Shown: positions 43,463 to 63,511, counted from the stretch's first letter. The stretch is DNA of 64,000 nt from an uncultured Gemmatimonadaceae bacterium (GCA_963781585.1 CAWAGQ010000005.1:352001-416000), one strand, 5' to 3'. Numbers and translations are program-made. The notes: a model not told the origin generated them from the letters alone.

Positions 43463-43502
43463 GCGGCAGGCGTGATGACCGAGGGTGAGGGGGAGACGGG
43501 CG

Positions 43503-45122
43503 ATGGCAGGGAAACGGAAGACTCCGGAGAGCGCACCAGGAGCACCGGAACGACCCCGTCGGCAGCGGCGGGCCCCGGCAGTCGTGCCCGTTGTGCCGGT
43601 GCCGCGTCCCGTAGTTCCTAACGAGTCTCCGCTGGTCGCCCCATCCGGCGAGCCGGTTACCGTGGTTCACCTTGCGGCTGAGCTCGCGCCCTTCGCGCGG
43701 ACCGGGGGCCTTGGCGAGGCGGTGTCGAGTCTGGCGCACTACCAGGCCCTGACCGGGCTCGCCGCGGTCATCGTGATGCCGTTGTACCGGCAGGTTCGGG
43801 ACGTGGTGTCCGACCTGGTTCCCGTGGGAGAGCCGTTCCCCGTGACGGTCGGGCCGCGAACCGAGCTGGCGCGGCTCTACGAGTCGCGGGCGCTCCAGTC
43901 GAACCCGGCGGAGGGCAAGCCGCGCATCCTGTTCGTCGAGAACGCGGAGTACTTCGACCGGGACCATATCTACGGAACGTCGCAGGGGGACTATCCGGAC
44001 AATCATCGGCGGTTCGCGTTCTTCTGCTTCGCCGCCCTGAACGCGCTCCCGTCGATTGCCGGGAAGCCGGTGATTCTCCACGCGCACGACTGGCATGCGG
44101 CTCTGGCGCCGGTGTACCTGCGCGTCTTCGACGGGGGTCCCGGGCGCGAGTTCTATCGAAACACGTCGTCGGTACTGACGGTGCATAACGCGGGTTTTCA
44201 GGGGCAGTTCGCGCCCGACGTACTCGCCGACCTGGGGCTTCCCTGGGAGCTGTACAATTTTGCCCAGCTGGAGTGGTACGGACGGGTGAACATCCTGAAG
44301 GGGGGCCTGGCATTCGCCGACGCCGTGTCTACGGTGAGCCCTACGCATGCGCACGAACTACGCACGCCGGCCGGCGGCTTCGGCCTGCACGACGCATTCA
44401 TCAGCCTGCGCGAGCGCTTCGTCGGTATCGTCAACGGCATCGATCAGCGCGAATGGAATCCGGAGACGGACCCCGTCATTACCAGTCGCTATAGCCGCGA
44501 GGACCTGTCGGGGAAGAAGCGATGCAAGAGTGCGCTTCAGCGGATCTTCGGGCTGCCACAGCGGTCGCGGGTGCCGATTTTCGGCATGAGCGCCCGAATG
44601 GTCTATCAGAAGGGCCTCGATCTCATTCTGGGCAGCCCCCGGTTCCTCTCGCTCGACGCACAGTTCCTGTTCCTGGGGCAGGGCGAGAAGCGGTACGTGG
44701 ATACGCTCACCGAGCTGGCGCTTCGGGCCCCGGGACGGATCGGCGTGCAGACCGATTTCACCAGTGTGCAGGAACATCGGTTGATGGCCGGCGCCGATGT
44801 GATCATCATGCCTTCGCAGTATGAGCCGTGCGGCCTTACCCAGATGCGGGCGCAGCGCTATGGCGCACTGCCGGTGGCGCGGCGTGTTGGCGGGCTGGCC
44901 GACACCATCGAGGACGGAGTCACCGGATTCCTTTTCGATGACTTCAGCACCAGCGATTTTCTTTCGGCGTGCGTGCGCGCGATCGACCACTACCAGCATC
45001 CCGCGACGTGGAATCCCATGCAGCGGGAAGCGATGTCGCGCGACTTCGGCTGGGAGCGATCGGAGCAGAAGTATCTGGAGCTGTACCGCCGGGTGCTGGC
45101 ATCGCCGCGATTCCGCCGGTGA
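43503..45122 (+). CDS. glgA: Glycogen/starch synthase (GT5)
   Basis: PFARTGGL, HAHDWH, TVHNAGFQG, NGID..W.P, QKG, EPCGLTQM, VGGLADT. Confidence 0.95.
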   Translation: MAGKRKTPESAPGAPERPRRQRRAPAVVPVVPVPRPVVPNESPLVAPSGEPVTVVHLAAELAPFARTGGLGEAVSSLAHYQALTGLAAVIVMPLYRQVRDVVSDLVPVGEPFPVTVGPRTELARLYESRALQSNPAEGKPRILFVENAEYFDRDHIYGTSQGDYPDNHRRFAFFCFAALNALPSIAGKPVILHAHDWHAALAPVYLRVFDGGPGREFYRNTSSVLTVHNAGFQGQFAPDVLADLGLPWELYNFAQLEWYGRVNILKGGLAFADAVSTVSPTHAHELRTPAGGFGLHDAFISLRERFVGIVNGIDQREWNPETDPVITSRYSREDLSGKKRCKSALQRIFGLPQRSRVPIFGMSARMVYQKGLDLILGSPRFLSLDAQFLFLGQGEKRYVDTLTELALRAPGRIGVQTDFTSVQEHRLMAGADVIIMPSQYEPCGLTQMRAQRYGALPVARRVGGLADTIEDGVTGFLFDDFSTSDFLSACVRAIDHYQHPATWNPMQREAMSRDFGWERSEQKYLELYRRVLASPRFRR

Positions 45123-45260
45123 ACGGGCAATGCATCGGTTTCAGGCGACTGTTGACCCGTGGCTGACGGCGATTGCCGCTGGCCATGACCTCGACGCCGG
45201 AAACATCAACGCAGGTCCCGCCGTCGGATCGGATGGCTTCCTTGAACGCGGGACGCTTCC

Positions 45261-46403
45261 ATGAAATGGTCGTGGCGAATCGGCCGCGTGGCCGGGATCG
45301 TGATCGAAATCCACGTCACGTTTCTCTTCCTGCTGCTGTGGATCGCACTCGTCGAGCAGCAGCGCGGTGGGACCGCGGCGTCCATCGCCGGGGCCCTGCT
45401 GTTCACGGTGGCGGTGTTCGTGTCCGTCGTGTTGCACGAATATGGCCACTCGCTCACCGCCCGACGTTTCGGCGTGCGGACGCGCAGCATCACGATCCTT
45501 CCCATCGGTGGTGTGTCGTCGCTCGAACGCATTCCGTCCGAGCCGCGTCAGGAACTGGCCATTGCCCTCGCCGGGCCGGCGGTAACGGTCGCCATCGTGG
45601 TGCTGTTGTTCCTGGTCCTCCTGGTCACCGGCCGGCCGGTCCTCGTGAAGGATCTGAGCTTCAGTGGTAGTCAGTTCCTGGCTCGGCTCATGTGGGTAAA
45701 CGTCGTGCTGGCGGTATTCAACGTCCTGCCGGCGTTCCCGATGGACGGTGGACGGGTGCTCCGCGCCGCGCTGGCGCTGCGGATGGAGTACGCCCGCGCC
45801 ACCAGAGTGGCCGCCACGATTGGGCGCGCATTCGCGGTCCTGTTCGCCATCGCAGGGTTCTTCAGCAATCCGTTTCTCGTCTTCATCGCGATCTTTGTCT
45901 GGATGGGCGCAACCGGCGAGAACTGGAGCGCACAGCTGCAATCGGCATTGCGCGGCTTGCCGGTGGAACGCGTGATGATCCGCGACCTTCGTACTCTTGC
46001 TCCGAACGACACGCTGGGACGTGCGGTGGAGCATCTCCTGGCCGGTTTCCAGCAGGACTTTCCGGTGCTCGACGGAGAGCACCTGGTAGGCGTATTGCCG
46101 CGCACCGATCTGATGAAGGCGTTGGCGCAGCGCGGCCCTGAAGCGCCGGTTCACGGGGCGATGCGCTCGGACTTCCCGATCGCTCATCCCGAAGAGCCGC
46201 TGGACGAGGCTTTTACGCGCCTGCAGCAGGCGAAATGCCATACGATGCCCGTGGTGAAGGGAGGCGTGCTGCAGGGGGTGCTGACGCTGGACAACGTGGG
46301 AGAATTCTTCATGGTGCAGGGGGCGGCGGGGAATCAGCGCGCGCGTTCCACAGGTCGGACGGCAGAGACCGGTCGCCGGCATCCTGCCGTCAGTCACCGG
46401 TAG
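45261..46403 (+). CDS. Site-2 protease (M50) with tandem CBS domains
   Basis: HEYGH, PIGG, AGP, FNVLPAFPMDGGR; C-terminal CBS pair. Confidence 0.93.
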   Translation: MKWSWRIGRVAGIVIEIHVTFLFLLLWIALVEQQRGGTAASIAGALLFTVAVFVSVVLHEYGHSLTARRFGVRTRSITILPIGGVSSLERIPSEPRQELAIALAGPAVTVAIVVLLFLVLLVTGRPVLVKDLSFSGSQFLARLMWVNVVLAVFNVLPAFPMDGGRVLRAALALRMEYARATRVAATIGRAFAVLFAIAGFFSNPFLVFIAIFVWMGATGENWSAQLQSALRGLPVERVMIRDLRTLAPNDTLGRAVEHLLAGFQQDFPVLDGEHLVGVLPRTDLMKALAQRGPEAPVHGAMRSDFPIAHPEEPLDEAFTRLQQAKCHTMPVVKGGVLQGVLTLDNVGEFFMVQGAAGNQRARSTGRTAETGRRHPAVSHR

Positions 46404-46477
46404 GCGCTGATGGGCGGTTACCGATCAGTGGGCGATCCTTGATCTTTCGCCCCTGATGATTGGCCGCTGGTTCCCAG

Positions 46478-48619
46478 GTGAACCCCCGACCTCCGACCCA
46501 CTTGGCATCTCTCGTCATTCACGGCCACTTCTATCAGCCACCGCGCGAGAATCCGTTTCTCGACGAGGTCGAGGCGGAGTTGTCGGCTGGACCATATCAC
46601 GACTGGAACCAGCGGATCGAGCGCGAATGCTATCGGGCGGTGGTAGCCGCCCGCGTAACCGGGCACGACGGCCGAATCGCGCGCATCGTCAATACGCTCG
46701 AGTGGATCTCCTTCAACTTCGGCCCGACGCTGCTCGAATGGCTGGAACGTGAGGCGAACGACACATATCGATCGATCCTGGCCGCGGATGACGCGAGCCG
46801 AAATCGGCTCGCTGGTCACGGCAATGCGATAGCCCAGCCGTATCATCACACCATCCTGCCACTGGCCTCGCGGCGCGACAAGCAGACCGAAGTGCGGTGG
46901 GGGATGGCAGACTTTCGCCGACGCTACGGTCGCGAACCCGAGGGGATGTGGCTCCCCGAGACCGCGGTGGACGACGAAACGCTGGACGTCCTCGCCGCCG
47001 AGGGAATCCGCTTCACCATTCTGGCGCCACACCAGCTGGTGCCGGTGCCGCCACTGGGTCGCCCGGGGCGGTATCGCACGTCGGGCGGCCGCAGCATCGC
47101 CCTCTTCACCTATGATGGATCTCTTTCCCACGGGATCGCCTTCGGCGGACTCCTGCACGACGCCGATGCCTGGGTGAGCCGGATGGCCACGGCCGGGTCA
47201 CACCTGGCAATGGAGGACGGAGTGGGCGACGCCAGAGCGGCGGGACAGGAGAGTCCTCAGAGACGTGCGCCGGAAGAAGACCGGCCGACTGCCGCCAAGA
47301 CGCCGGAGCTGCTGCTCGCCATGGCAACGGATGGCGAAACGTACGGCCATCATCACCGATTCGGCGAAATGGCGCTGGCGCACGCGGTGGAGAAGATGCG
47401 TGCGGCGCAGTGGCGCGTCGAGAATTTCGCGTCGTTCCTTGCGCGCTCCCCCGCCACCGTTGACGTGGCGATCGTCACACCAAGCGCATGGAGCTGCGTG
47501 CATGGTGTGGAGCGGTGGCGGTCGAACTGTGGCTGCCGACTCGACGGTGGGCGCAATCCGAGCCAGGCGTGGCGAGCACCGCTGCGACAGGGACTGGAGA
47601 AGGTCGCCGCCAGGGTGCACGCCGTTTTCGAGGAGGAAGGGCGCGCCTTGTTCGACGATCCGTGGCGGGTGCGCGACGGGTACGGTGCGGTCGTGGCGGG
47701 GGGCGCAGACGAGCTCGCACGATTCGCCGGGGAGCGCGTTCGCCATCCGGCGTCCGTGGAACAGCTCGTACGGGCACGGGAGCTGCTCGAGATGGAACGC
47801 GATACCCTGCGCATGTTCACCTCGTGTGCCTGGTTCTTCGACGATATCGGAGGATTGGAGGCACGCCAGGTCCTCCGCTACGCGGCGCGCGCGATCGACC
47901 TGGCGGGAAGGGACCGCGACCGGCTCGAGGTACAGCTCCTCGACGAGCTCTCGATGGCGGGCAGCAACGACGCGGCTCTCGGTAGCGGCAGCGACGTATA
48001 CCGCGCGGCCACCCGGGTGGCTGCTCCGGCTCCGGTTCGGATCGCCGCGGCGGCGATGGCCGGACTGCATGCTGGCGCACAGGCCGTGGTGCGCACCGGG
48101 AACGCCGAGGTGGAGATCGCGGGGGACACCGTTCGGGTGACGGAGTCCCGTACGGGCCGCCGTCATCAGCTGCGCGCGCGGGTCGTGCGCTCCTCACACA
48201 CCGAGGTCGTGACCGAGGTGGCCGACGAGCAGGACGTCCGATACCGACTCTCGCTGGCTGACCTGCCGGAGCGCCCCCGCCACGCCATTCGATCCCGGTT
48301 GAGGCGGTCCATTCTGCCCGGCTGCCTGACGCCGGGCGAGATCGACCTGCTGCTGGTGGGCGACGTGACACTGGGCGGATTGGTGCGCGTGGCCCTGGTC
48401 CGGACGGTGAAGCGGCTGGAGCAGGATCACGACGGGGAGGCGCTGCAGCTGGTCAACGCGCTCCTCGATCTGATCGAACAGTCCGAGGGCAAGGTTCCCT
48501 TCGACGCGCAGACCGCCTTCTGGCGTATCTGGCAGCGTGCCAATCGGGAGCGACGCGCGGATCTGCACGAACTCCACGTGCGGCTGGGGTTCGTGGACAG
48601 CGAAACAGGCGACGCCTGA
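46478..48619 (+). CDS. GH57 family glycoside hydrolase (DUF3536 type)
   Basis: HGHFYQPPRENP, SFNFGPTL, GMWLPETA (nucleophile Glu), TDGETYGHH, WSCVHGVERW, MFTSCAWFF. Confidence 0.9.
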   Translation: MNPRPPTHLASLVIHGHFYQPPRENPFLDEVEAELSAGPYHDWNQRIERECYRAVVAARVTGHDGRIARIVNTLEWISFNFGPTLLEWLEREANDTYRSILAADDASRNRLAGHGNAIAQPYHHTILPLASRRDKQTEVRWGMADFRRRYGREPEGMWLPETAVDDETLDVLAAEGIRFTILAPHQLVPVPPLGRPGRYRTSGGRSIALFTYDGSLSHGIAFGGLLHDADAWVSRMATAGSHLAMEDGVGDARAAGQESPQRRAPEEDRPTAAKTPELLLAMATDGETYGHHHRFGEMALAHAVEKMRAAQWRVENFASFLARSPATVDVAIVTPSAWSCVHGVERWRSNCGCRLDGGRNPSQAWRAPLRQGLEKVAARVHAVFEEEGRALFDDPWRVRDGYGAVVAGGADELARFAGERVRHPASVEQLVRARELLEMERDTLRMFTSCAWFFDDIGGLEARQVLRYAARAIDLAGRDRDRLEVQLLDELSMAGSNDAALGSGSDVYRAATRVAAPAPVRIAAAAMAGLHAGAQAVVRTGNAEVEIAGDTVRVTESRTGRRHQLRARVVRSSHTEVVTEVADEQDVRYRLSLADLPERPRHAIRSRLRRSILPGCLTPGEIDLLLVGDVTLGGLVRVALVRTVKRLEQDHDGEALQLVNALLDLIEQSEGKVPFDAQTAFWRIWQRANRERRADLHELHVRLGFVDSETGDA

Positions 48620-48632
48620 AGGCCGCGAGCCG

Positions 48633-50702
48633 ATGACCGCGATCCGGTTCTGCTTCGGACTGCACCTGCACCAGCCGGTGGGGAACTTCGACCACGTAAT
48701 CGAGCAGCACGTACGCGACGTGTACCGGCCATTCCTCGAACGCATCCGGGTGCACGGGTTCCTGCCGGTGGCGCTGCACATCTCGGGACCGCTGCTGGAC
48801 TGGCTCGAGAAACGCGATCATCGCTTTCTCGATCTGCTGGGCGATCTGACCGCGGACGGAAAGATCGAATGGTTGCTGGCAGGCTACGACGAGCCCGTGC
48901 TGGCGGCGCTACCGCGTGTTGACCGCCTGGAACAGATCGCGTGGATGCGCGAGGCGCTTCGGGCACGCTACGGAGCCGCGGCCACTGGTCTGTGGCTCAC
49001 TGAGCGGGTGTGGGAGCCGGACCTGGCTGCCGACCTGCACGACGCCGGTGTGCGCTTCGCGCTGGTCGACGACCGGCACTTCGTGGTCACCGGCTTCCGA
49101 CGCGACCAGCTGCACGCGCCGTACTGGACGGAACACGGAGGGAAGCAGCTGGCGCTCTTTCCGATCGACGAGCGACTGCGGTACCTGATCCCCTTCGAGG
49201 CGGTTGCGGAAACGGGGAACTACCTGCGCGGGCTGCGAGAGGCTGGTCACCGGCTGGCCGTGCTGGCGGACGACGGGGAGAAATTCGGCGGATGGCCGGG
49301 CACGAAGGAGTGGGTCTACGATCGTGGGTGGCTGGATGGGTTCTTCGCGGCGATGCACGAGCAGGTCTCCAATGGCGACGTGGTCCTCTCCACCTTCGCC
49401 GATGCGCTCGACACGGTGCCGAGCGGCGGCATCGCGTATCTGCCGACCGCGAGCTATCGCGAGATGGAAGCCTGGTCACTGCCGACGGCGCAAGCGCAAC
49501 GGCTCACCGCACTCGAACAGCAGCTTGGGGCCGACCGCATGGCGGGGCCGGATGGCGCGCTGGTGCGGGGCGCGCACTGGAAGAACTTCTTCGTCAAGTA
49601 TTCGGAAGCGAACCGGATGCACAAGAAGATGCTTGCGCTCTCGGTGCTGTGCCGCGAACGCGGCGATCCCGCTGCGGCGCGGCGCGCCGTCGGTCGCGCC
49701 CAGTGCAACGATGCGTACTGGCACGGGGTCTTTGGCGGCCTCTACCTGCCGTTTCTCCGGGCGGCTGTGTGGCGGAATCTGGCTGAAGCAGAGCGGCTCC
49801 TGCGTATGGGCGAGCCGCTCCGCGCGGAGGAGACGGACATCGATGGCGATGGTCACGCGGAGGTGTGGATCCACTCGGCCCACTTTTCGGCGGTCGTGAG
49901 TCCATATCGCGGCGGGGCGATCGAGGAGCTGACCCGGTTCTCGGTCGAGCCAGACACCGTCCCCGGTGCTTCGGAAGAGACACGTCCGGCAGCGGAAAGA
50001 CACATCGACGCCGGGCCTGCAGACGTGCCAGCCGCTGCCGACGGCTCGCCGGTCGGCGCGAATCACGCGGATGTGCTCACGCGGCGCCGCGAAGCGTATC
50101 ACGTGCTGGCCGACCCATGGTACGAGGCGCAGACGAACGCCGAGGCAACCATGCCAGGGGCAACGGCGCCGAACGAACCTCAGTCGGCGGCGAGTACACC
50201 CAGCATCCATGAGCTGGAGCACGGCTTTCGGCTTCGCGAACTGCCGGCCGTAGACCTCGACGATCGGGCGATCTTCATCGAGCGCGTGATCGCGGGCTCG
50301 GTGACGCGGGATGAGTTCGCGCGTGCGCAGTATCAGCCGGTGGCCTCGGCGGCACGGATCGCGATGGCCTGCCGCGTGCGTCGGTCGGAATCGCGCGTGG
50401 AGGTGGCGCTGGAAGCCCCGGACGGCCGGTTGCGCAAGACCCTGACGTTTCGACCGGATGGTAGAGTGCGCGCGGATTTCGTGTGGGACCAGCGGGCGTT
50501 TGCGGAGAGCGATTGGTTCACCATCGAGCTGTCCCTCGACCGTGCGCTCCCCGTGGCGTGCACGCCGAGCACCGAGGTGTGGGAGTATCCGATCGAGACG
50601 GTATCCAAATCGGAGAAGGGATTGGATCGCGTGCGCCAGGGTGTCGCGGTGGTCGTGCGGTGGCCGGTGGCGCAGGGGCGGGGCAGCGTGGACCTGGGGT
50701 GA
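48633..50702 (+). CDS. GH57 alpha-amylase / 4-alpha-glucanotransferase
   Basis: HLHQPVGN, GLWLTERVWE, DDGEKFG.WP, AQCNDAYWHGVFGGLY, ETVSKSE.G. Confidence 0.92.
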   Translation: MTAIRFCFGLHLHQPVGNFDHVIEQHVRDVYRPFLERIRVHGFLPVALHISGPLLDWLEKRDHRFLDLLGDLTADGKIEWLLAGYDEPVLAALPRVDRLEQIAWMREALRARYGAAATGLWLTERVWEPDLAADLHDAGVRFALVDDRHFVVTGFRRDQLHAPYWTEHGGKQLALFPIDERLRYLIPFEAVAETGNYLRGLREAGHRLAVLADDGEKFGGWPGTKEWVYDRGWLDGFFAAMHEQVSNGDVVLSTFADALDTVPSGGIAYLPTASYREMEAWSLPTAQAQRLTALEQQLGADRMAGPDGALVRGAHWKNFFVKYSEANRMHKKMLALSVLCRERGDPAAARRAVGRAQCNDAYWHGVFGGLYLPFLRAAVWRNLAEAERLLRMGEPLRAEETDIDGDGHAEVWIHSAHFSAVVSPYRGGAIEELTRFSVEPDTVPGASEETRPAAERHIDAGPADVPAAADGSPVGANHADVLTRRREAYHVLADPWYEAQTNAEATMPGATAPNEPQSAASTPSIHELEHGFRLRELPAVDLDDRAIFIERVIAGSVTRDEFARAQYQPVASAARIAMACRVRRSESRVEVALEAPDGRLRKTLTFRPDGRVRADFVWDQRAFAESDWFTIELSLDRALPVACTPSTEVWEYPIETVSKSEKGLDRVRQGVAVVVRWPVAQGRGSVDLG

Positions 50703-51508
50703 GACAGAACCTCCAGTATCTCCGGAAGTGGATTGCACGGCGGCGTGTCCCTCCCGGCGCCCTCGACGTGATTCCTGATGTGGAGAGCCGGGAACTCGGG
50801 AACCGGCGCGACGTGCTGGTCTATCGTCCGAGCTCCTACGATCGGACGGACGAACCCTATCCCGTCATCTACATGCACGATGGACAGAACCTGTTCGATC
50901 CGGCCACCAGTTTTGCGGGCGAATGGGGAGTGGACGTCGCCCTCGACAAGGCACCGCGCAAGGGCCGGCGGGCGCTCATCGTCGGGATTCCCAACACCGG
51001 AATCGACCGGGTTCGCGAGTATTCGCCATTCGTGGACCCGCGACAGGGCGGCGGGCTGGGCAACGCCTATCTCGACTTCCTGGTGGGGACCGTCAAACCC
51101 CTGGTGGACAGCCGGTATCGGACCCTTACCGACGCATATGGGACCGGAATCGCCGGGTCGTCACTGGGTGGTCTGATCAGCCTCCATGGCTTCTTCCGCC
51201 AGCCGTCGCGGTTCGGCTTCGCGGGGGTGCTGAGCCCGGCCCTCTGGTTCGCGGATGGCGCCATCTTCCACGCGGTCGAGGCGGCGCCGTATGTTCCCGG
51301 GCGCATCTATCTCGACGTGGGCGGGCGGGAGGGCGCCGGCGCAGTGCGCGATGCGCGCCGGATGCGCGATCTGCTGATCGCGAAGGGATACCGTCCGGGG
51401 AAGACATTGCTCTGGCGCGAGGATCGGACGGGGCTGCATAACGAGGCGGTGTGGGGCCGTCGGTTTCGCAGCGCCCTGCCGTTCCTGCTCAGCGGCGACG
51501 TCACCTGA
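50699..51508 (+). CDS. Alpha/beta hydrolase, putative esterase
   Basis: YPVIYMHDGQNLFD, GSSLGG nucleophile elbow, YLDVG..E, HNE..W; GTGA overlap with the GH57 stop. Confidence 0.9.
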   Translation: MRQNLQYLRKWIARRRVPPGALDVIPDVESRELGNRRDVLVYRPSSYDRTDEPYPVIYMHDGQNLFDPATSFAGEWGVDVALDKAPRKGRRALIVGIPNTGIDRVREYSPFVDPRQGGGLGNAYLDFLVGTVKPLVDSRYRTLTDAYGTGIAGSSLGGLISLHGFFRQPSRFGFAGVLSPALWFADGAIFHAVEAAPYVPGRIYLDVGGREGAGAVRDARRMRDLLIAKGYRPGKTLLWREDRTGLHNEAVWGRRFRSALPFLLSGDVT

Positions 51509-51509
51509 C

Positions 51510-52238
51510 ATGGGAACACGGCTCCATGGGCAGCATCATGCCTGGTACAGTCTGGTGGCCGGGCGCACGATGCACGTGCGCTGGTTCGGTCACGCGGGTG
51601 CCCGGGTGATCGCCTTCCCCACGACCATGGGGAACCACAACGAATGGCCGGATCGATCCATGCCCGATGTACTCGGCGAGCACATCGAGGAGGGGTGGAT
51701 TCAGCTCTGGTGCGTGGATCACAATCACGATGCGAGCTGGTACGACAAGTCGGCCCATCCAGGTCACCGCGCCTGGTTGCACCTGCAATACGATCGCTAT
51801 CTGCACGAGGAACTCCTGCCATTCACCGCGTACATCAATGCGACCCCATTCGTGATCGTCACTGGGGCCAGTTTCGGCGCGTACCATGCGATGACATTCG
51901 GCTTGCGTCATCCGCACCTGGTTCACCGTATCATCGGGATGAGTGGCTTCTACGATATCAAGGAGATGACCGACGGGTACTCCGACGAGAACGTGTATGC
52001 CTGCAATCCCTTCGACTTCATGCAGCACGAACACGACCCGGAGCGGCTCGACGCCTTCCGGCGGCAGGACATCATCATCGCGACCGGGCGGGGAGATCCC
52101 CACTACCAGGAGAATGCCGACTTCTCGGGCGTGCTGTGGAGCCGGGGAATCGGCAACGCCCTCCGCGTGTGGGACGGCTGGTGCCACGACTGGCCGTACT
52201 GGGAGCAGATGATCGTGAGGTACATGGGGGGGCATTAG
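51510..52238 (+). CDS. Alpha/beta hydrolase, putative esterase or transacylase
   Basis: FGHAG..VIAFPT, GASFGAYHA (GxSxG), HDWPYW. Confidence 0.88.
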   Translation: MGTRLHGQHHAWYSLVAGRTMHVRWFGHAGARVIAFPTTMGNHNEWPDRSMPDVLGEHIEEGWIQLWCVDHNHDASWYDKSAHPGHRAWLHLQYDRYLHEELLPFTAYINATPFVIVTGASFGAYHAMTFGLRHPHLVHRIIGMSGFYDIKEMTDGYSDENVYACNPFDFMQHEHDPERLDAFRRQDIIIATGRGDPHYQENADFSGVLWSRGIGNALRVWDGWCHDWPYWEQMIVRYMGGH

Positions 52239-52301
52239 AGAGGCCACAGGCCATAGGTCATCGCTCATAGGCCATGGCCACATCCGCTGCATCCACCGTT
52301 C

Positions 52302-53285
52302 ATGGAGCCCAACGCCACCATGTCGAAACGCATCGGCCTCTTCGTGGGCAGAGAGTGGTCCTGGCCGCCCGCCTTCATCGAGGAAGTGGAAAAGCGCGAC
52401 CAGGGGGTGACTGCGGAATACGCGAAGATCGGGGGCGAGCATCACGACGCGCCCTCGCCGTACGACGTCCTCATCGACCGGATTTCGCACGAGGTGCCGA
52501 TGTACCGGTCGTACCTCAAGAAGGCGGTGCTGGACGGACGAACGGTGGTGAACAACCCCTTCATGTGGACGGCCGACGACAAGTTCTTCGGCGCGGCGCT
52601 GATCCGCCGCCTCGGCGTGGCGTCGCCCAGGACCGTGCTCCTGCCGAACAAGGACTACATCGAGGGCATCGTGCCGCACGAGAGTCTGCGCAACCTCCGG
52701 TATCCGCTGGACTGGAAGGAAATCGTCGCCTGGGTGGGGCTGCCGTGCGTGCTCAAGGATGCGCACGGCGGGGGCTGGAAGGAGGTGCACGTCTGCCGCT
52801 CGCTCGACGAGCTGATCCACCGCTACGATCAGTCTGGCCGGCTGACGATGATCGTGCAGGAGTTCATCGAGTGGGACCACTTCGTGCGCTGCCTGTGCAT
52901 TGGCCGGCAGGGAGTGCTGCCCATGAAGTACGACCCCGGTGCGCGGAAGTATCTGGTGGAGCACGAGCACCTCACCCCCGAGCTGGGGGCCCGCGTGGTG
53001 ACCGATTCGCTGACCATTGTCCGCGCGTTAGGCTACGACATGAACTCGATCGAGTGGGCCATTCGCGATGGAATCCCCTACGCGATCGATTTCATGAACC
53101 CGGCGCCGGACATGGACGTGTATTCGCTGACGCCGATGTACTTCGAGTGGGCGGTGGAGAAAATGGCGACGATGGCGATTCGCCTGGCGAAGACGGCACA
53201 CCTCCAGGTCGCCGAACTCCACTGGAGTCGGCTGTTCAGCCACGATGCGCATCGCAGCGCGGCGCCATCCCCGGTCGCACGATGA
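52302..53285 (+). CDS. RimK/GshB-like ATP-grasp ligase
   Basis: IDRISH, NNPF..ADDKFF, LKDAHGGGWK, VQEFI, NSIEWA..AIDFMNPAPD; start 52302 or 52320. Confidence 0.88.
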   Translation: MEPNATMSKRIGLFVGREWSWPPAFIEEVEKRDQGVTAEYAKIGGEHHDAPSPYDVLIDRISHEVPMYRSYLKKAVLDGRTVVNNPFMWTADDKFFGAALIRRLGVASPRTVLLPNKDYIEGIVPHESLRNLRYPLDWKEIVAWVGLPCVLKDAHGGGWKEVHVCRSLDELIHRYDQSGRLTMIVQEFIEWDHFVRCLCIGRQGVLPMKYDPGARKYLVEHEHLTPELGARVVTDSLTIVRALGYDMNSIEWAIRDGIPYAIDFMNPAPDMDVYSLTPMYFEWAVEKMATMAIRLAKTAHLQVAELHWSRLFSHDAHRSAAPSPVAR

Positions 53286-53394
53286 TCCACCGCGGACGGG
53301 CGGTGATCAGGAGTCGCCGGTGGGCTGACGTGACGGCGCGCAGGAGGCATCGCGTCGGAAGCAGGATCGTACCGCCTTTGTCCCGCTGCCCGCC

Positions 53395-54744
53395 GTGCTG
53401 CACGACGCCATAGCGCGATACCACGACCTGCTGACGCCGGAGCTGGCGGAGGCATCAGCCGAGCACCTGGACCATGCGCTGCGCCGGCATGGGCTGGTGT
53501 TCGGCGACCGGCCACTGTGCACGGTGCTGCGGCCGCGTCTGCTGACCGCCGAAGCCTATCGGCGACTCCAGGGGCGCATCGTGCCGCTCATGCGGGCGTT
53601 TCGCGCCGCGCACGAACGGGCAATGATCGACCGCGGGTTCCGGACGCAGTTCCGGCTCGGGGAGTGGGAAGAAGCACTCCTCGCCGCAGACCCCCGGTTC
53701 GATGCGCCAAGCCCGACCTCGCGGCTCGACTTCTTCTACGCGCCCGATACGGACGTCCTGGGCCTGACGGAGTACAATGCCGAGACGCCGGCTGGTGCGG
53801 CCTATAGCGACGCGCTGGCAGAGGTCTTTCTCGATCTGCCGGCGATGCGCGCTTTCGCCGCGGACTACGAGATCCTGCCGGTGCCCTGTCGGCAGGGTGT
53901 GATCGGCGCACTGCTGGACGCCTACTATCAGTTCGCCGGCTCGCGCGATCGTCCGCGGATCGCGATCCTCGATTGGCACGACGTGCCCACGCGTACGGAG
54001 TTCGAGTTGTACGCCGAGCACTTCCTGGCCCTTGGAATCGAGTGCGTGATCGGTGACCCGCGCCAGGCGGACTATCGACAGGGACAATTGTGGATCGGTG
54101 GGACCCCGGTCACCCTGATCTACAAGCGGGTGCTGATCAGCGAGCTGGTGACCCGGTGCGGGCTCGACTCGCCGGTGGTGCGGGCGGTCCGGGACGGCGC
54201 GGTGTGCATGGTGGACGGATTCCGCTGCAAGATCCTGCACAAGAAGGCGAGCCTCGCGGTGCTGAGCGACGAACGGAACGCGCATCTGTTCGGGGCTGCC
54301 GAGCGGCGGGCCATCGCCGACTGCATCCCGTGGACCCGGGTGGTCGAAGAGCGCCACACGACCTGCCGGGACGAGGCGGTGGACCTGGTGCCGTTCATCA
54401 TCCGTGAGCGGGAGCGCTTCGTGCTCAAGCCTAACGATGATTACGGAGGGCGGGGAATCACCTTGGGCTGGCGCGTGGACGGGAGCCAGTGGGAGGCGGC
54501 GGTCCGCAACGCGCTGGCCGAGCCGTTCATCGTCCAGGAACAGGTGGCCGTGCCATCGGAACCGTATCCCGGCTGGGTCGACGGCCGGCTGCAGATTCTC
54601 GAGCGGCAGTACGATACCGCGCCGTTCATCACCAACGGTGCCTACATGGAGGGCATGCTGGCGCGGCTGTCGACCGACACGCTGCTCAACGTGACCGCCG
54701 GCGGCGGGAGCACGGTGCCCACGTTCCTGGTGGAGAAGCGGTGA
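53395..54744 (+). CDS. Circularly permuted ATP-grasp ligase (glutathionylspermidine synthase-like fold)
   Basis: [38 protein letters not shown]...LNVTAGGG. Confidence 0.86.
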
Positions 54745-54922
54745 GGGGGACCGGCGGCCCCGGCCGGCACGGCGGCCACAGGCCCGGCATGGCACCGGCG
54801 TGGCCCTTCGCCGTCCGCCGACGCCGCGCTCCGGGATCCGGAGGTTACGCCGGCCCACCGGCGAGGTTGATCCGTCGGCCGCGCCGCGCCATGATGGCGT
54901 CTCCCCTGCCCGACACCTCCGC

Positions 54923-56131
54923 ATGAACCGCCCAAGCCTGACGATCGGGGTCGAAGAGGAATACCAGATCATCGATCCCCGCACCCGGGAGCTGCAGTCG
55001 TACATCACGCAGATTCTCGAGGCCGATCACCTGATCATGGGACAGGTGAAGCCCGAGCTGCACCAGTCGATCGTGGAAGTGGGCACCAACGTCTGTCACA
55101 CACCCGGCGCCGTGCGCGACCAACTGCTCGCGCTCCGGCGCGGCGTGATGGAACTGGCGGCCAGGAACGGACTCAAGATCGCGGCCGCCGGAACGCATCC
55201 GTTCTCGCACTGGGCCGAGCAGGAGATCACGCCGCTGGAACGCTACATCGGCACGCGTGAGGCGATGGCGCAGCTTGCCCAGCAACTCCTGATCTTCGGC
55301 ACGCACGTGCACATCGGCATCGAGGATCGCGATTTCCTGATCGACTGCGCGAACGTCTCGCGCTATGTCCTCCCCCATATCCTCTGCCTCTCCACCAGCT
55401 CGCCCTTCTGGATCGGACGCAACACCGGCCTCAAGTCGTATCGGAGTGCCATCTTCCGCGCGTTCCCGCGCACCGGCATCCCGCCCTTCCTCGCTTCCTG
55501 GAACGACTACCAGGCCTACCTCCGCACCCTGGTCGCCACCGGTTGCGTCCCCGACGGGTCGAAGATCTGGTGGGACGTGCGCCCGCATCACCAGTTCCCG
55601 ACTCTCGAATTCCGGGTGTGCGATGTCTGCACCCGCGTCGAGGAAGCGGTGTGCATTGCCGCCATCCTGCAGGCGCTGGTGTTCAAGCTGTGGAAGATGC
55701 GCCGGGACAACGTCACCTTCCGCATCTATCCCGCCGAACTGATCGAAGAGAACAAGTGGCGCGCCGTACGCTACGGTCTCGATGGCAAGCTGATCGACTT
55801 CGGCCGCGAAACGGAACTGCCCGCCCCCGCGCTGATTCGCGAGTTTCTCGACTGGTTCCTGGGCGACGTGGTCGATGAGCTTGGAAGCCGGCGGGAAGTG
55901 GAATACGCCCAGCACATTCTGGAGCACGGCTCCAGTGCGGATCGCCAACTGGCTACCTTCGGGGAGACGGGGAGTCTGCAGGCGGTGGTGGACCGGCTCA
56001 TCACCGAGACGGAGGAAGGCGTTCACCCACCGCACGAGCCGGCAGGCGCCGTGAAGGACACCCACTATCGCGCGGTTTCGCAGTCCAGGCCCGAGGCGCT
56101 CGCTCCCGAGATCGGGCCGCCGCCGAGCTGA
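54923..56131 (+). CDS. Carboxylate-amine ligase, YbdK/GCS2 family
   Basis: [57 protein letters not shown]. Confidence 0.94.
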
Positions 56132-56145
56132 CGGCACACGCAGTC

Positions 56146-56919
56146 ATGCGACCGATTATCGGAGTCACCACCCAGACGCTGCAGGCGATCGATGGCATTC
56201 CCCCCGGACTGCCCGCGTCGGTGGTGATGAATCAGCGATACTATGACGCCGTGGCCGACGCCGGTGGAGCACCCATCCTCATTCCCCTGTTTGACGATGC
56301 CACCGACGTGTTGCGCGGCGTGTACGACGTGTGCGACGGGATCCTCATCCCCGGGGGCGTGGACATGCACCCGGCCTGTTTCGGTGAGGCTCCCCATGAG
56401 CGCCTCGGCCGCACGGACCAGGTCAGGGATCGGGTGGAACTGCAACTCACGCGGTGGGCCATCGACAACGGAAAACCGCTGCTGGGACTGTGCCGCGGAC
56501 TGCAGGTGATCAATGTGGCGCTCGGGGGCACGCTCTATCAGGATCTGGGGACGGAGCGCGCCGGCTCCATTCGCCACGACTACTTCCCGACCCACGGTTA
56601 CACGCGCGACTACCTGGCGCACGAGGTCGCACTCCACAGCGGCACGCGGCTGTTCGAGGCGATGGGCCGTGATCGGATCGCGGTCAACAGCATGCACCAC
56701 CAGGGCATCAAGGACCTTTCTCCCACGCTCGTCCCGGCGGCCACTGCGCCCGATGGGCTGGTGGAAGGAGTGGAGGGGCCGGGCGATCAGTACCTGGTGG
56801 GTGTGCAGTGGCACCCCGAGGTGTTCGAGTCCGCCGACGCGCATACACGGCGCCTGTTCGAGAGCTTCCTGGCAGCCAGCCGCACCTTCCGCGATCGGAG
56901 CGTCGCACGAACCGCGTGA
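56146..56919 (+). CDS. Gamma-glutamyl-gamma-aminobutyrate hydrolase family (peptidase C26, class I GATase)
   Basis: RPIIGVT, IPGGVD, GLCRGLQ (Cys nucleophile), NSMHHQ, VQWHPE. Confidence 0.93.
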   Translation: MRPIIGVTTQTLQAIDGIPPGLPASVVMNQRYYDAVADAGGAPILIPLFDDATDVLRGVYDVCDGILIPGGVDMHPACFGEAPHERLGRTDQVRDRVELQLTRWAIDNGKPLLGLCRGLQVINVALGGTLYQDLGTERAGSIRHDYFPTHGYTRDYLAHEVALHSGTRLFEAMGRDRIAVNSMHHQGIKDLSPTLVPAATAPDGLVEGVEGPGDQYLVGVQWHPEVFESADAHTRRLFESFLAASRTFRDRSVARTA

Positions 56920-57660
56920 GGAGCGCGGTGCTGGTCGCGACGCTGGCGTTGTCGCTCCCGGGCTGCACGCGCGGCCTGCGGCTGGTGGACGAGTCCGGGG
57001 CGCGGGTGGTCATCACCGGTGGTCCGTGGGCGAGCATGGTCTATCTGGCGGCCACCGATAGCGGCGTGATCGCCATCGACCTGGGCTGGGGTGGGGCGGA
57101 GCGGAAGATGCGGCAGGCGCTGACCGAGCTTGGCGCCACCCCTTCCGACGTGCGCTATGTCTTCCTCACCCACGCGCATCGTGATCATACCGCCGCCTGG
57201 CGCATCGTGCGTGGTGCCACGTTCGTACTCGGCGTGGCGGAGGTGCCGTTCTTCACGGGAACGGCCCGGTATCGCGGGCTGCTGCCGCGTATTGGCGATC
57301 GCCTGGTGCCGTACCCGCGGGCCGCAACCCGGCGAGCTGCACGTGCTGGCGTTAGGCGCGGACACGGCATTCGCCTTCGGTCGCGACACCGTCCTGGCCT
57401 TCGGCGTGCCGGGTCACACCGCGGGCAGCACCGCGTACCTGATGCGGAGCGTCCTGTTCGCGGGCGACGCGATCAACTGGCGGCCGTGGACCGGGTTTCG
57501 CGGGGCGCGTCCCGAGTTCTCGGATGATGTGGCGCGGAGCCGGGCCAGCATGCGAGCGCTCTGGCTGCGCGTGGATTCGTCGCGCGTGCACGTGGCGTGC
57601 AGCGCCCACGCCAAGTGTGGCCGCGTGACAGCGGCGGTTCGTGAGGCGACCAGCCGGTAG
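56916..57660 (+). pseudogene. MBL-fold metallo-hydrolase lipoprotein split by a +1 frameshift at about 57321 (pseudogene or sequence error)
   Basis: LPGC lipobox and LTHAHRDH in frame 56916; PGHTAGS, LFAGD and CSAH in the next frame ending at 57660; extra G in CGG-G-CCG. Confidence 0.75.
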
Positions 57661-60494: not shown

Positions 60495-60546
60495 CCTCCA
60501 CGGTCCCGGCGGTACATTGGGGAGCATTCCCTCAGCCATCGTGCCC

Positions 60547-61506
60547 ATGTTCACGCTCTCGCTTCGCGAATTCGAGGCAACGCGCGCCCGCATCGCGCCG
60601 CACATCTACCGCACGCCGTTGCTCGGATCGCGCCAGTTGAGCGAACTCTCCGGGTACGAGGTCCGTCTCAAGGCGGAGCTGTTCCAGCGTGTGGGGTCGT
60701 ACAAGATCCGCGGCCCACTCAACAAGTTCGCCCTCATGCCCGAGGAGCAGAAACGGCGCGGCGTGGTGTGCTCGTCGGCGGGGAATCACGCGCAGGGGGT
60801 GGCGCTGGCGGCACGGATCCACGGGATTCGCGCCGTGGTCTGCATGGCGGAGAACGCCACCCCCTCGAAGATCGCGGCCACCCGTGGCTACGGCGCCGAA
60901 GTCGTGCTCCACGGCACCATCTGGGACGAGGCCGACGAGAAGGCCAGGGAACTGGTGCGCACCGAGGGCCTGACCTACGTCCACCCCTTCGACGACGAAC
61001 AACTCATCGCCGGACAGGGCACCCTGGGGCTCGAGATCGTGCAGGACTGGCCCGAGGTGGACGTGGTGGTGGTGCCGATCGGCGGCGGGGGTCTCATCTC
61101 CGGCGTCTCCATGGCGGTGAAAGCCCGCAATCCGGGTGCGCGAGTGATCGGCGTGGAGTCGTCGGACGGACCGGCCATGAAGGAAAGCATCCGGGCAGGG
61201 AAACTCGTGACCATCGACTGCAACACGATCATCGACGGTCTGCGGGTGAAACGGGTGGGGGAACTCAACTTCTCGGTGGTGCAGCGCTTCGTCGACGACA
61301 TCGTCGCGCTTCCCGATCGCGACATCTTCGACGCGATGATCTGGGTGATGGAACGATGCAAGCTGGTGGTGGAGGGCGCCGCGGCGGCGCCCGTCGCGGC
61401 GCTGTTGCACGGGCTGATCAAAGCGCCGCCGGGATCACGCGTGGCGGCCGTGCTGTCCGGCGGAAATCTGAATCTCGATCAGTTGCGCGGATTGAAGTGG
61501 AACTGA
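60547..61506 (+). CDS. Threonine/serine dehydratase (catalytic domain only)
   Basis: LKAELFQRVGSYKIRG (PLP Lys), SAGNHAQG, PIGGGGL, LSGGN. Confidence 0.92.
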   Translation: MFTLSLREFEATRARIAPHIYRTPLLGSRQLSELSGYEVRLKAELFQRVGSYKIRGPLNKFALMPEEQKRRGVVCSSAGNHAQGVALAARIHGIRAVVCMAENATPSKIAATRGYGAEVVLHGTIWDEADEKARELVRTEGLTYVHPFDDEQLIAGQGTLGLEIVQDWPEVDVVVVPIGGGGLISGVSMAVKARNPGARVIGVESSDGPAMKESIRAGKLVTIDCNTIIDGLRVKRVGELNFSVVQRFVDDIVALPDRDIFDAMIWVMERCKLVVEGAAAAPVAALLHGLIKAPPGSRVAAVLSGGNLNLDQLRGLKWN

Positions 61507-61545
61507 CCGGTAATCAGCAGCGGGCGGGCCACATGGCTCCTCCGC

Positions 61546-61905
61546 TCAGCTCGCAGCCGCGGCGCTTGCCTCTGCTGACTGGCGGCGCACCTCTGCCGCC
61601 ACCGTTGCGGCGACACTCGATGACGACATCCCGGACTCGCCCGCCAGCGACGTCAGCCCCAGTCCAAGCCCTTTGAGCGGATTCTTCCACAGTAGCGTGC
61701 CGGTAAGTGGGTCGAGACAGTAGACCTCGCCCCCGCAGGTCGCGAAGAGCACGTCGGCGTCCCGGAACACGCACACGAACGCCGATGAGCGAGCCATCGA
61801 ACCCCGCAGTAGGGTGCGCCAAGCCTCGCTGCCGTCTCGACGGTCGAGCGCGACGACGGTTCCCTTGATGCCGATGTACACGAGGCCGTGAGTGGGACGC
61901 GGCAT
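61546..61905 (-). CDS. Small PQQ-like beta-propeller repeat protein
   Basis: VVALDRRDGSEAW and VYCLDPLTGTLLW repeats; GGAG RBS. Confidence 0.78.
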   Translation of the reverse strand: MPRPTHGLVYIGIKGTVVALDRRDGSEAWRTLLRGSMARSSAFVCVFRDADVLFATCGGEVYCLDPLTGTLLWKNPLKGLGLGLTSLAGESGMSSSSVAATVAAEVRRQSAEASAAAAS

Positions 61906-62071
61906 GGGCAGGTCTCCTGGATGCGCCGCCAGCGCGTGACGGCAATGGCGTTCGGGATATGTCGCCTGGTGCGACGGGTGAGGCCGATCACAGCCGGCGC
62001 GCCGCTCTCGCGCCGGCGCCAGCCGCGCTCTATCGTATCGTCAGGTCCGCGGCTTCCTCCAGAGGTCGGTC

Positions 62072-63472
62072 ATGCACGTTCCTTCCACAGCACCCGCACC
62101 GGAGGCGCTCACACGCCGCGAGTTGCTCCGCGGTGCGCTCGCCGTGTCGGCCGCAACGGTCCTGCCGCCATTGAAATGGTCCGGAGCGACTCCGTGGGTA
62201 TTGACGGGATCGACGCTCCGTGGTTCGAACCTGGTCGACACCGCGCTCCGGGCGGAACACTGGATCGCGCGGTTCGCGCAGCAGAGCGAACGGGGAACCG
62301 CATGGCCGTGGAATCCCGCGGATGCCGCCGGAATCCAGTCGAATCTCTACACGGGCACGCCGGGCGTGGTGCTCTTCTACCTCGAGTTGCACCATGCCAC
62401 CGGCGACAACCGGGCGCTGGCGCAGGCACAGGCGGGCGCGAAATGGCTTGCGGCCATGCTGCCGGAAAACGCCAAGCTCGGTGACGGGGGGCTGTACACG
62501 GGGATGGCCGGCATCGCCTACACGCTCGAGATGGTGCATCGCGCCAGCGGCGAGGCACGGCACCGCGAGGCGTCGCTGCGTGCGCTGACCCTGTTGAAAC
62601 AGGCGGCCCAGCCGGCTGGGAAAGGCGTGGAGTGGTCCGAGAGCACGGACATCATCTCCGGCAGCGCGGGCATCGGCCTGTTCCTGCTGTGGGCGGACGC
62701 AGAAATGGGTGATGCGGAGTCGCGCGCGCTCGCCGTGAAAGCAGGGAGGCGCCTCATCGAGCGGGGAGTCCCTGAGCGGGGAGGCATGAAGTGGCTCGTC
62801 TCGCCGGCGATTCCCCGCAACTATCCCAACTTCTCGCACGGCACGGCCGGCGTGTCGTATTTCCTGGCGACGCTGCATCATGCCACGGGTGACCGGGCGT
62901 TCCTCGATGTCGCCGCGGCCGGCGCCCGTTACCTTGACGCCATCGCGGTGCCCACGCCTGACGATGGCCGGATGGTCTTCCACAGCGAGCCGGGAAACGA
63001 GCACCTCTACTACCTGAGCTGGTGCCATGGCCCGGCGGGTACCGCGCGGCTCTATCGCCGACTGGCCCAGGCGACCGCCGATCCGGCCTATGAGGCCCGC
63101 GTGGGTCAGCTCGCCCAGGCGATCGTCGACATGCACGTTCCCGAACGCTCGCCCGGGTTCTGGAACAACATCAGCCAGTGCTGCGGGAATTGCGGCGTGG
63201 TGGAGTTCTTCGTGGACCTGCATCGCCGCGACGGAGCGCCGCACCACCTGGAGTTCGCCGAACGCGTCACCGCCGACACGCTGCGACGCGGCTCCACCGA
63301 CAACGATGGCACGAAGTGGACGCAGGCGGAGAACCGCGTCCAACCGGACGTGCTCATCGCGCAGACCGGCCTGATGCAGGGGGCGTCCGGCGTCGGGATC
63401 GCCATGCTGCACCTGGATGGCGTGGCGGCCAACCGCGAGCCATTCGTGGTGCTGCCGGATAACCCGTTTTGA
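62072..63472 (+). CDS. LanC-like (lanthionine synthetase C-like) protein with Tat signal peptide
   Basis: TRRELL twin-arginine motif; seven GxxG toroid repeats (LYTGTPG, LYTGMAG, IISGSAG, FSHGTAG, WCHGPAG, CCGNCG, LMQGASG). Confidence 0.88.
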   Translation: MHVPSTAPAPEALTRRELLRGALAVSAATVLPPLKWSGATPWVLTGSTLRGSNLVDTALRAEHWIARFAQQSERGTAWPWNPADAAGIQSNLYTGTPGVVLFYLELHHATGDNRALAQAQAGAKWLAAMLPENAKLGDGGLYTGMAGIAYTLEMVHRASGEARHREASLRALTLLKQAAQPAGKGVEWSESTDIISGSAGIGLFLLWADAEMGDAESRALAVKAGRRLIERGVPERGGMKWLVSPAIPRNYPNFSHGTAGVSYFLATLHHATGDRAFLDVAAAGARYLDAIAVPTPDDGRMVFHSEPGNEHLYYLSWCHGPAGTARLYRRLAQATADPAYEARVGQLAQAIVDMHVPERSPGFWNNISQCCGNCGVVEFFVDLHRRDGAPHHLEFAERVTADTLRRGSTDNDGTKWTQAENRVQPDVLIAQTGLMQGASGVGIAMLHLDGVAANREPFVVLPDNPF

Positions 63473-63511
63473 GCACGGCCAGCGATTTGCTGCAGGCTCT
63501 CCCCCAGCGAG

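Follow-up and report, generated by a model that had tools for sequence, protein, structure and literature searches.

The closest described system to the gene cluster reported here is a gene neighbourhood in the 2009 survey by Iyer, Abhiman, Burroughs, and Aravind (Mol Biosyst). In that survey, a CP_ATPgrasp_2 gene is said to lie beside genes for a GCS2-like ligase, an alpha/beta-hydrolase, and an amidohydrolase, and small peptides were reportedly predicted as the products. The amidohydrolase is said to be of class II, and an M20 peptidase reportedly belongs to the same neighbourhood. The Pfam text of the family (PF14403) takes a Roseiflexus protein as the prototype. Our cluster occupies positions 50699-56919 of the window, meaning the whole 64-kb stretch of DNA analyzed (uncultured Gemmatimonadaceae bacterium, G+C ~66%). 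Six closely spaced genes on the plus strand, with gaps of 1, 63, 109, 178, and 14 bp, encode two PF00756 esterases (Est1 and Est2), a classical ATP-grasp ligase, a circularly permuted ATP-grasp ligase, a GCS2/YbdK ligase, and a C26 hydrolase. Among the matches listed, the nearest relatives of the window proteins come from Gemmatimonadaceae. The link to the 2009 neighbourhood is seen in the close homologues of the permuted ligase, of which 13 of the 120 listed carry PF14403, and in the existence of Chloroflexota relatives. The window's own permuted ligase, however, does not reach the PF14403 cut-off, and the amidohydrolase here is of class I (C26). An always-adjacent classical ATP-grasp gene, a linkage to glycogen genes, and an optional extra pair of ATP-grasp genes, all described below, may or may not have been part of that survey. 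Within the literature searched, no paper characterizes such a cluster or names PF14403, CP_ATPgrasp_2, or RoseRS_2616; a paper on a thiohistidine dipeptide (PMC13674229) was set aside as unrelated.

Two further pathways resemble the cluster in their chemistry. Glutathione and glutathionylspermidine biosynthesis also combines a GCS2-family ligase with a ligase of the glutathione synthetase fold (TM-score 0.70 between the permuted ligase and 2hgs), includes a hydrolase of gamma-glutamyl bonds, and follows a two-step acyl-phosphate logic. Unlike glutathione biosynthesis, the cluster has a third ligase, its proteins match no glutathione synthetase model and stay below the glutamate-cysteine ligase cut-offs, and its core ligase pair exists in other phyla without GCS2. 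The fungal assembly of E-64 by the ligase Cp1B likewise uses a permuted ATP-grasp enzyme with other stand-alone amide-forming enzymes and no non-ribosomal peptide synthetase, but it builds on an epoxysuccinate warhead and involves no GCS2, C26, or esterase protein (PMC12568646).

The genes of the cluster co-occur in other genomes. A permuted-ligase pattern derived from a 27-row alignment was used to scan one genome per species, giving at least 593 relatives in 600 pattern matches, and the best 80 loci were analyzed (72 from Gemmatimonadota, 7 from Chloroflexota including Anaerolineae, and 1 from Gemmatales). One of the Gemmatimonadota loci (L020) belongs to a Roseisolibacter isolate. The window proteins were searched against these loci, and each partner was scored only in loci with sufficient flanking DNA. 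The classical, RimK-like ATP-grasp gene lies within 400 bp upstream of the permuted ligase gene in 54/56 Gemmatimonadota loci and in 6/7 loci of other phyla. GCS2 is found downstream of the permuted ligase in 49/51 Gemmatimonadota loci and C26 in 44/49, and neither is found in the scored loci of other phyla (0/5 and 0/4, respectively). Est2 is upstream on the same strand in 36/52 Gemmatimonadota loci and 3/7 others, and Est1 in 25/46 and 0/6. The RimK-like, GCS2, and C26 genes occur jointly in 29/33 Gemmatimonadota loci, and all five partners in 14/33. Outside Gemmatimonadota, the ATP-grasp pair is kept, sometimes with Est2, and in the 80 loci GCS2 was seen there only in a short Chloroflexota locus (L073). 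The ATP-grasp pair is thus the invariant core, and GCS2 and C26 form a second module that is present almost only in Gemmatimonadota. The six-gene unit proposed in the first-pass annotation is real in the sense that its genes travel together, but it is divisible, and the esterases are optional.

The adjacency of the genes holds down to 52% identity of the permuted ligase. In a FastTree phylogeny of the permuted ligase, which included the window and 77 of the 80 loci (L063, L071, and L076 were omitted for a partial match or an in-frame stop), the permuted ligase is followed first by GCS2 in 51 loci and by C26 in 14, which takes 2 changes on the tree. The order with C26 first marks a single clade of 13 loci that has no esterases; two other clades carry the esterase genes in inverted orientation. 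Because the adjacency outlasts these order swaps and inversions, the genes appear to be linked as a set. The view that they have no joint function, being mere synteny of separate housekeeping genes in one phylum, could draw on the 72 of 80 loci from that phylum, the few rearrangements on the tree, and the optional esterases, but it is very improbable given the adjacency at 52% identity through swaps and strand inversions, the short gaps or overlapping genes, and the neighbouring ATP-grasp pair in 6/7 Chloroflexota and Planctomycetota loci, with Est2 in 3/7.

No conserved small open reading frame (ORF), RNA, or Rfam element was found in the intergenic gaps, and the gaps of 63, 109, and 178 bp showed no syntenic conservation by tblastx or blastn across the 80 loci. 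The matches to the permuted ligase and to GCS2 directly adjoin or overlap one another in some loci. This agrees with the earlier remark that no precursor peptide or carrier is visible. Since no conserved small precursor or carrier ORF is present in the cluster, it does not correspond to a graspetide, to another ribosomally synthesized and post-translationally modified peptide system, or to a LysW-type carrier system. A scan for promoters and terminators, together with Rfam, gave nothing exceeding background.

The permuted ligase (449 aa, 53395-54744, plus strand) was identified by its AlphaFold model and Foldseek. The model has a mean predicted local distance difference test (pLDDT) score of 96.7, and its best PDB matches are the human, soybean, and potato glutathione or homoglutathione synthetases, including 2hgs and 3kal, with TM-scores of 0.70-0.72. 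The next matches are a bacterial permuted ATP-grasp protein (3n6x), the E-64 ligase Cp1B (9cjn), the glutathionylspermidine synthetase GspS (2io8), and YjfC/YgiC. Over 2hgs, 3kal, 3n6x, 9cjn, and 2io8, the Foldseek E-values range from 1e-17 to 1e-12 and the TM-scores from 0.59 to 0.72. A profile search with 77 relatives gave the same neighbours, with E-values of 1.9e-14 for 3n6x, 7e-9 for Cp1B, and 3e-6 for YgiC/GspS. The E-x-N motif and the glycine-rich loop VLKPND.YGG.G are conserved in 78 rows, and neighbours of the protein in the Atlas are automatically named 'circularly permuted type 2 ATP-grasp'. The predicted structure confirms a circularly permuted ATP-grasp fold of the glutathione synthetase/GspS type.

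The RimK-like protein (327 aa, 52302-53285, plus strand) was likewise assigned by AlphaFold and Foldseek as a classical, non-permuted ATP-grasp ligase resembling RimK, Ddl, and LysX. Its model has a pLDDT of 85.4, and the best Foldseek matches are Ddl (3r5x), RimK (7qys and 5zk6), and ArgX (3vpc), with TM-scores of 0.61-0.65 and E-values of ~1e-13 to 1e-12. The motifs LKDAHGGGW, QEF, and PYAIDFMN.APD, which would provide the ATP-binding lysine, the glycine-rich loop, and the Mg ligands, are conserved, and the model confirms the classical fold. A longer off-frame ORF at 52274-53413 was considered as the third gene and rejected, as it has no family match. No Pfam model covers this family: a precomputed Pfam domain is absent from every one of the 120 homologues listed, whose identity is 69% or higher, with one from Thermomicrobiaceae at 75%. 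The family is also large: all 8000 scored candidates were significant. For the permuted ligase, 7131 of 8000 candidates were significant, and 3389 clusters at the 50% identity level were matched.

The GCS2/YbdK-family carboxylate-amine ligase (54923-56131, plus strand) scored 193.8 bits against PF04107 (cut-off 21) and 510.3 bits against the 'carboxylate-amine ligase' model NF010039 (cut-off 371), and it matches YbdK (1r8g) with an E-value of 5e-48. It stays below the glutamate-cysteine ligase equivalogs PRK13517/13518 and TIGR02048, the best score being 345.6 bits against a cut-off of 409. The ORF opens with GTG at 54800, and the homologue alignments begin at ATG 54923. The C26 protein (56146-56919, plus strand), a hydrolase resembling class-I glutamine amidotransferases, scored 204.9 bits against PF07722 (cut-off 20.5). 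Its PDB relatives include Lin1909 (2e-43) and PuuD (1e-29), and 7d4r, annotated as 'probable glutamine amidotransferase', is with PuuD among its best characterized relatives. We take 7d4r to be Pseudomonas SpuA. The equivalog of PuuD, the gamma-glutamyl-gamma-aminobutyrate hydrolase (NF008471), gave 117.9 bits, below its cut-off of 266. The Cys-His-Glu triad lies in CRG.Q (Cys) and QWHPE (His and Glu), which are kept in at least 95% of 48 rows.

Both esterases belong to the PF00756 'putative esterase' family of alpha/beta-hydrolases. Est1 (50699-51508, plus strand) is a CE1/IroE-like protein, predicted to be cytoplasmic, with 101.6 bits against PF00756 (cut-off 22), and its best PDB relatives are CE1 esterases and siderophore esterases (E-values 4e-11 to 1e-9). 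The GSS.G motif, the histidine, and the glutamate are kept in at least 95% of 34 rows. Its GTG at 50699 overlaps the stop codon of an upstream GH57 gene as GTGA. This start is uncertain; among 33 homologues, the alignment includes residue 1 in only 3 and begins at residues 19-30 in most, and an alternative start is near 50768. Est2 (51510-52238, plus strand) scored 31 bits against PF00756 (same cut-off of 22), and the best PDB relative is an 'esterase family protein' (6vh9, E-value 3e-4). In 45 rows, GAS is kept in at least 95% and the following F and G in at least 80%, and HDWP is also conserved. Est2 is the esterase most frequently retained next to the ligase pair.

These results agree with the first-pass annotation in most of its description of the parts. 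All six co-directional, closely packed genes are present, with a largest gap of 178 bp, and the catalytic motifs it listed are kept in at least 95% of the aligned relatives (34 to 78 rows depending on the protein), apart from the F and G of Est2. Both ATP-grasp proteins likewise retain the E-x-N and glycine-rich loops. It was right about the two ATP-grasp folds, as judged by the AlphaFold models, although neither protein reaches the cut-off of a named Pfam family. Three ligases are indeed present, but they are not three unrelated ones, as two share the ATP-grasp fold.

We give about an even chance to the reading that the cluster builds a small gamma-glutamyl peptide or peptide-amine conjugate step by step, independently of the ribosome, and that its hydrolases trim or recycle this product. 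The chemistry of each enzyme is inferred from the activities of the characterized members of its family, and the physiological role goes similarly beyond the observed gene content, folds, conserved catalytic residues, and co-occurrence. GCS2 enzymes form gamma-glutamyl amides, and PuuD-type C26 enzymes hydrolyze them. RimK/LysX-type enzymes attach an amino acid to a carboxylate. The proteins would thus form a cytoplasmic amidoligase pathway of successive ATP-dependent carboxylate-amine ligations. In this pathway, the GCS2/YbdK ligase would join the gamma-carboxylate of glutamate to an amine, either an amino acid or a polyamine. The permuted ATP-grasp ligase would activate the terminal carboxylate of a short peptide and then add an amino acid or amine, and the RimK-like ligase would add one further residue. 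The C26 hydrolase would cut the gamma-glutamyl amide bond, either removing a transient gamma-glutamyl handle or recycling the product, and the PF00756 hydrolases may act on an ester, thioester, or peptide bond as part of turnover or editing. The ATP-grasp pair would then be the core, with GCS2 and C26 as a module that adds and removes the gamma-glutamyl group.

The solved relatives of the permuted ligase all make small molecules, namely glutathione, homoglutathione, glutathionylspermidine, and, in the case of Cp1B, an E-64 intermediate. The characterized relatives all join a small carboxylate and an amine through an acyl phosphate, the pairs being gamma-Glu-Cys with glycine or beta-alanine, glutathione or a peptide with spermidine, and epoxysuccinate with an amino acid; the E-64 paper terms YgiC and YjfC peptidylpolyamine synthetases (PMC12568646). 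According to two published comparative analyses, operon-linked ATP-grasp and COOH-NH2 ligases frequently carry out successive ligations (PMC4431377), and GCS2-like ligases next to amidotransferase-like thiol peptidases, with no Pup-like ORF, are considered probably to make glutathione-like peptides rather than protein tags (PMC2588565). The relatives' chemistry and these analyses favor a small peptide. By analogy with the characterized permuted-ligase relatives, all of which use small molecules, a small product is favored over a polymer or a tag, and the up to five different ligases in related loci fit a defined multi-step product. Glutathione itself is an unlikely product judging from the sequences, as neither ATP-grasp protein matched the NCBIfam glutathione synthetase model at E-values up to 1 or 10.

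Several points weigh against this small gamma-glutamyl product. The assignment of both ATP-grasp ligases is below family cut-offs: the RimK-like protein scored 16.4 bits against PF08443 (cut-off 21) and 35.5 bits (7e-9) against TIGR00768 (cut-off 143.4), and the permuted ligase scored 16 bits (E-value 0.006) against CP_ATPgrasp_2 (PF14403), which has a gathering cut-off of 32. The unusually strong conservation seen in the RimK-like protein would suit a substrate from primary metabolism or a macromolecule just as well as a small one. All adequately flanked loci outside Gemmatimonadota have the ATP-grasp pair with no nearby GCS2 (0/5) or C26 (0/4), and the gamma-glutamyl part may therefore be peripheral. 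Some of the conservation could be inherited synteny, with 72 of 80 loci from one phylum. Genes for an exporter, a regulator, or a carrier are missing from the six-gene cluster. With ligases and hydrolases in the same operon, a futile cycle could result, unless the hydrolases serve to mature the product or are under regulation. Sequence does not distinguish between a polymer, a solute, and a protein tag, nor does it define the substrates and the product. The build-and-degrade gamma-glutamyl system suggested in the first-pass annotation is still a fair reading of genes that do co-occur, with the qualification that the GCS2-C26 module and the esterases are not invariant.

The genes upstream of the cluster add a further feature. 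From 41258 to 50702, all genes are on the plus strand with short gaps, and the six-gene cluster forms the tail of this run. By Pfam matches, it comprises a glycogen phosphorylase-like gene with DUF3417 (41258-43462), the glycogen synthase gene glgA (43485-45122), an M50 site-2-protease-like gene with CBS domains (45261-46403), a GH57+DUF3536 gene (46460-48619), and a GH57 alpha-amylase/4-alpha-glucanotransferase gene (ORF 48537-50702). The transcription unit probably begins in these glycogen genes, with 41258-50702 in the same unit as the cluster, so the operon drawn earlier at 50699-56919 has the right six co-directional genes but probably the wrong beginning. Glycogen genes are located within 10 kb of the cluster in 11 of the 23 Gemmatimonadota loci flanked by at least 8 kb on each side, and in none of the 3 well-flanked loci from elsewhere. 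They are found in three arrangements (upstream on the same strand, downstream on the opposite strand, or on both sides), with 3 changes on the tree, and in one locus GlgC is encoded 3 kb downstream of the cluster. In Gemmatimonadota, the cluster is coupled to glycogen genes genomically and probably also transcriptionally. This coupling suggests a role in a storage or nutrient-stress program.

A cyanophycin-like reserve or stress polyamide, serving as a nitrogen reserve co-regulated with the glycogen carbon reserve, would explain this neighbourhood. RimK makes poly-alpha-glutamate. The RimK-like protein would polymerize the backbone, the permuted ligase or GCS2 would amidate the side-chain carboxylates, and C26 and the alpha/beta-hydrolases would mobilize the polymer. 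We regard this as unlikely. Synthetases lie next to hydrolases as in storage-polymer loci, the glycogen genes recur in three arrangements in 11/23 well-flanked Gemmatimonadota loci with only 3 tree changes, the window's cluster begins within the stop codon of the GH57 gene, and RimK is among the best structural matches of the strongly conserved RimK-like protein. The cyanophycin synthetase/cyanophycinase system also resembles the cluster in its ATP-grasp chemistry, its pairing of synthesis and breakdown genes, and a conceivable reserve role alongside glycogen. However, the cluster lacks the multidomain CphA, and the six proteins contain neither the Mur-ligase-like domain of cyanophycin synthetase nor an S51 peptidase. 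Three to five different ligases exceed the need of a two-bond repeat, the permuted-ligase relatives are without known polymer activity, and the glycogen link is missing in 3/3 well-flanked loci outside Gemmatimonadota.

A rather improbable extension of the glycogen coupling is a novel cytoplasmic polyamide or a peptide decoration, built by the ligases and tied physically or by regulation to glycogen, as a nitrogen-rich partner mobilized by the CE1/IroE-like esterases and C26. In its extreme form, an aminoacyl or peptidyl ester would be made on the alpha-glucan by an ester-forming ATP-grasp ligase and removed by the carbohydrate-esterase-like proteins.

Salvage or catabolic gamma-glutamylation of amines and polyamines, or plain glutathione/glutathionylspermidine metabolism, is about as doubtful. 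Here GCS2 would gamma-glutamylate an amine, C26 would release it as in PuuA/PuuD, and the permuted ligase would make a peptide-polyamine conjugate. The C26 relatives PuuD and 7d4r, the relationship of the permuted ligase to GspS, YgiC, and YjfC, and the membership of GCS2 in a gamma-glutamyl ligase family are all consistent with this chemistry, and the pairing of a glutamate-amine ligase with a C26 hydrolase recalls PuuA/PuuD. In contrast to that pathway, the ligase of the cluster is of the GCS2 type rather than the glutamine synthetase type, two ATP-grasp ligases are added, and no oxidizing steps are encoded, with no Puu-type oxidase or dehydrogenase gene in the cluster. Three ATP-dependent ligases would be costly for catabolism. 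The model scores also argue against a standard enzyme set, with the PuuD equivalog at 117.9 against 266, all glutamate-cysteine ligase models below cut-off, and no glutathione synthetase match.

The structural matches of the RimK-like protein raise the question of a protein substrate. RimK and the ArgX-LysW complex are among its top matches, and its very high conservation would suit a conserved protein target. The cluster could then extend or tag a protein, as RimK does on S6 or LysX/ArgX on the carrier LysW, with the hydrolases removing the tag. We consider this quite improbable. The protein shares the classical fold of RimK/LysX/ArgX and weakly matches TIGR00768 (7e-9), but it is far under the family cut-offs, and a partner gene of the S6 or LysW type is missing from the cluster. 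Neither a carrier or target gene nor a conserved small ORF is present within the cluster or its gaps, and the gaps reach zero in some loci. A published analysis also prefers metabolites for GCS2-like ligases next to amidotransferase-like peptidases with no Pup-like ORF (PMC2588565).

The cluster is of interest beyond this locus. Both ATP-grasp families are very large and spread over abundant soil phyla, and identification of the product would give a function to thousands of 'hypothetical' genes. The product could turn out to be a primary metabolite shared across the phylum Gemmatimonadota, for instance a cofactor resembling glutathione, an osmolyte, or a reserve, and the glycogen link supplies a concrete, testable physiological condition. 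As an enzymology target, the cluster is very widespread, and its existence is unsurprising; what stands out locally is the glycogen linkage and the modular composition.

The modularity extends to further genes in some lineages. Two more ATP-grasp genes of the PurK/Ddl/L-amino-acid-ligase type adjoin the cluster in 11 Gemmatimonadota loci (L024:4952-7473, with equivalents in L020, L025, L031-L034, L048, L060, L070, and L072). They are paralogous, being ~32% identical to one another, and their presence requires 5 changes on the tree over 42 scored rows. A single extra copy lies 6 kb upstream of the cluster in L004, and the 64-kb window contains no such pair. In L070 and L072, the nearest relatives of the window, the extra pair occupies the place of the window's second GH57 gene. 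In the Gemmatimonas-type clade with no esterases, a protein with no Pfam match is encoded upstream of the RimK-like gene (L042:6881-8251, with equivalents in L010, L011, L018, L023, L026, and L064), and it is 59-80% identical among the 7 loci. Two Anaerolineae loci (L075:6920-8131 and L080:6941-8083) have a subtilase (S8) gene immediately upstream of Est2, the RimK-like gene, and the permuted ligase gene. A GNAT-type Acetyltransf_6 gene also adjoins in L075, and another ATP-grasp gene lies on the opposite strand in L080.

A connection to sulfur or cysteine metabolism through PALP neighbours was rejected, as these are unrelated housekeeping proteins (TrpB in L077, cystathionine beta-synthase in L075, and threonine ammonia-lyase in the window). 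A siderophore-related idea started from the likeness of Est1 to IroE/Fes esterases and from TonB-type genes downstream. Of the 80 loci, just two (L050 and L063) also have the window's CarboxypepD_reg gene next to the cluster, and one TonB-dependent receptor was seen, in L042.

Among metagenome predictions, the long fusion entries P0149, P0223, and P0271 span cluster genes and could mislead domain-architecture surveys. P0223 and P0271 were discounted as frameshifted read-throughs of neighbouring genes; P0149, a 'fusion' of the permuted ligase and GCS2, may be a similar artefact and counts as adjacency only. A fusion that looks real is P0234, in which an AMP-binding domain is joined to a 32%-identical homologue.

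The plasmid collection contained no homologue of the RimK-like protein and only distant homologues of the permuted ligase (~25% identity). On a Selenomonas plasmid (L082, NC_017076.1), such a ~25%-identical homologue forms a run with a ligase of the glutamate-cysteine-ligase family (GCS) and a MATE exporter. On a Bacillus thuringiensis plasmid (L081, CP052064.1), a homologue of ~25% identity is accompanied by a MATE exporter and a phenylacetate-CoA-ligase-like gene. The MATE exporters beside these homologues suggest exported small peptides in the Selenomonas and Bacillus lineages.

Downstream of C26, a gene of the metallo-beta-lactamase (MBL) fold with a lipoprotein-like N-terminus follows at 56808-57660 on the plus strand. 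It is split between two reading frames at ~57317-57322, compared with intact homologues in L063 and L072, and is either a pseudogene or the result of an assembly error. Its score against B3 beta-lactamase models is 32 bits, far short of the cut-off of 240. Further downstream, the plus-strand region 60517-64000 encodes a short threonine ammonia-lyase-like enzyme dependent on pyridoxal phosphate (PLP), a stand-alone LanC-like protein (62072-63472), and the start of a PLP-dependent decarboxylase. The threonine ammonia-lyase-like and LanC-like genes are found again 4-6 kb downstream of the cluster in L038, L043, L050, and L057, and the LanC-like gene is also present in L004 and L063.

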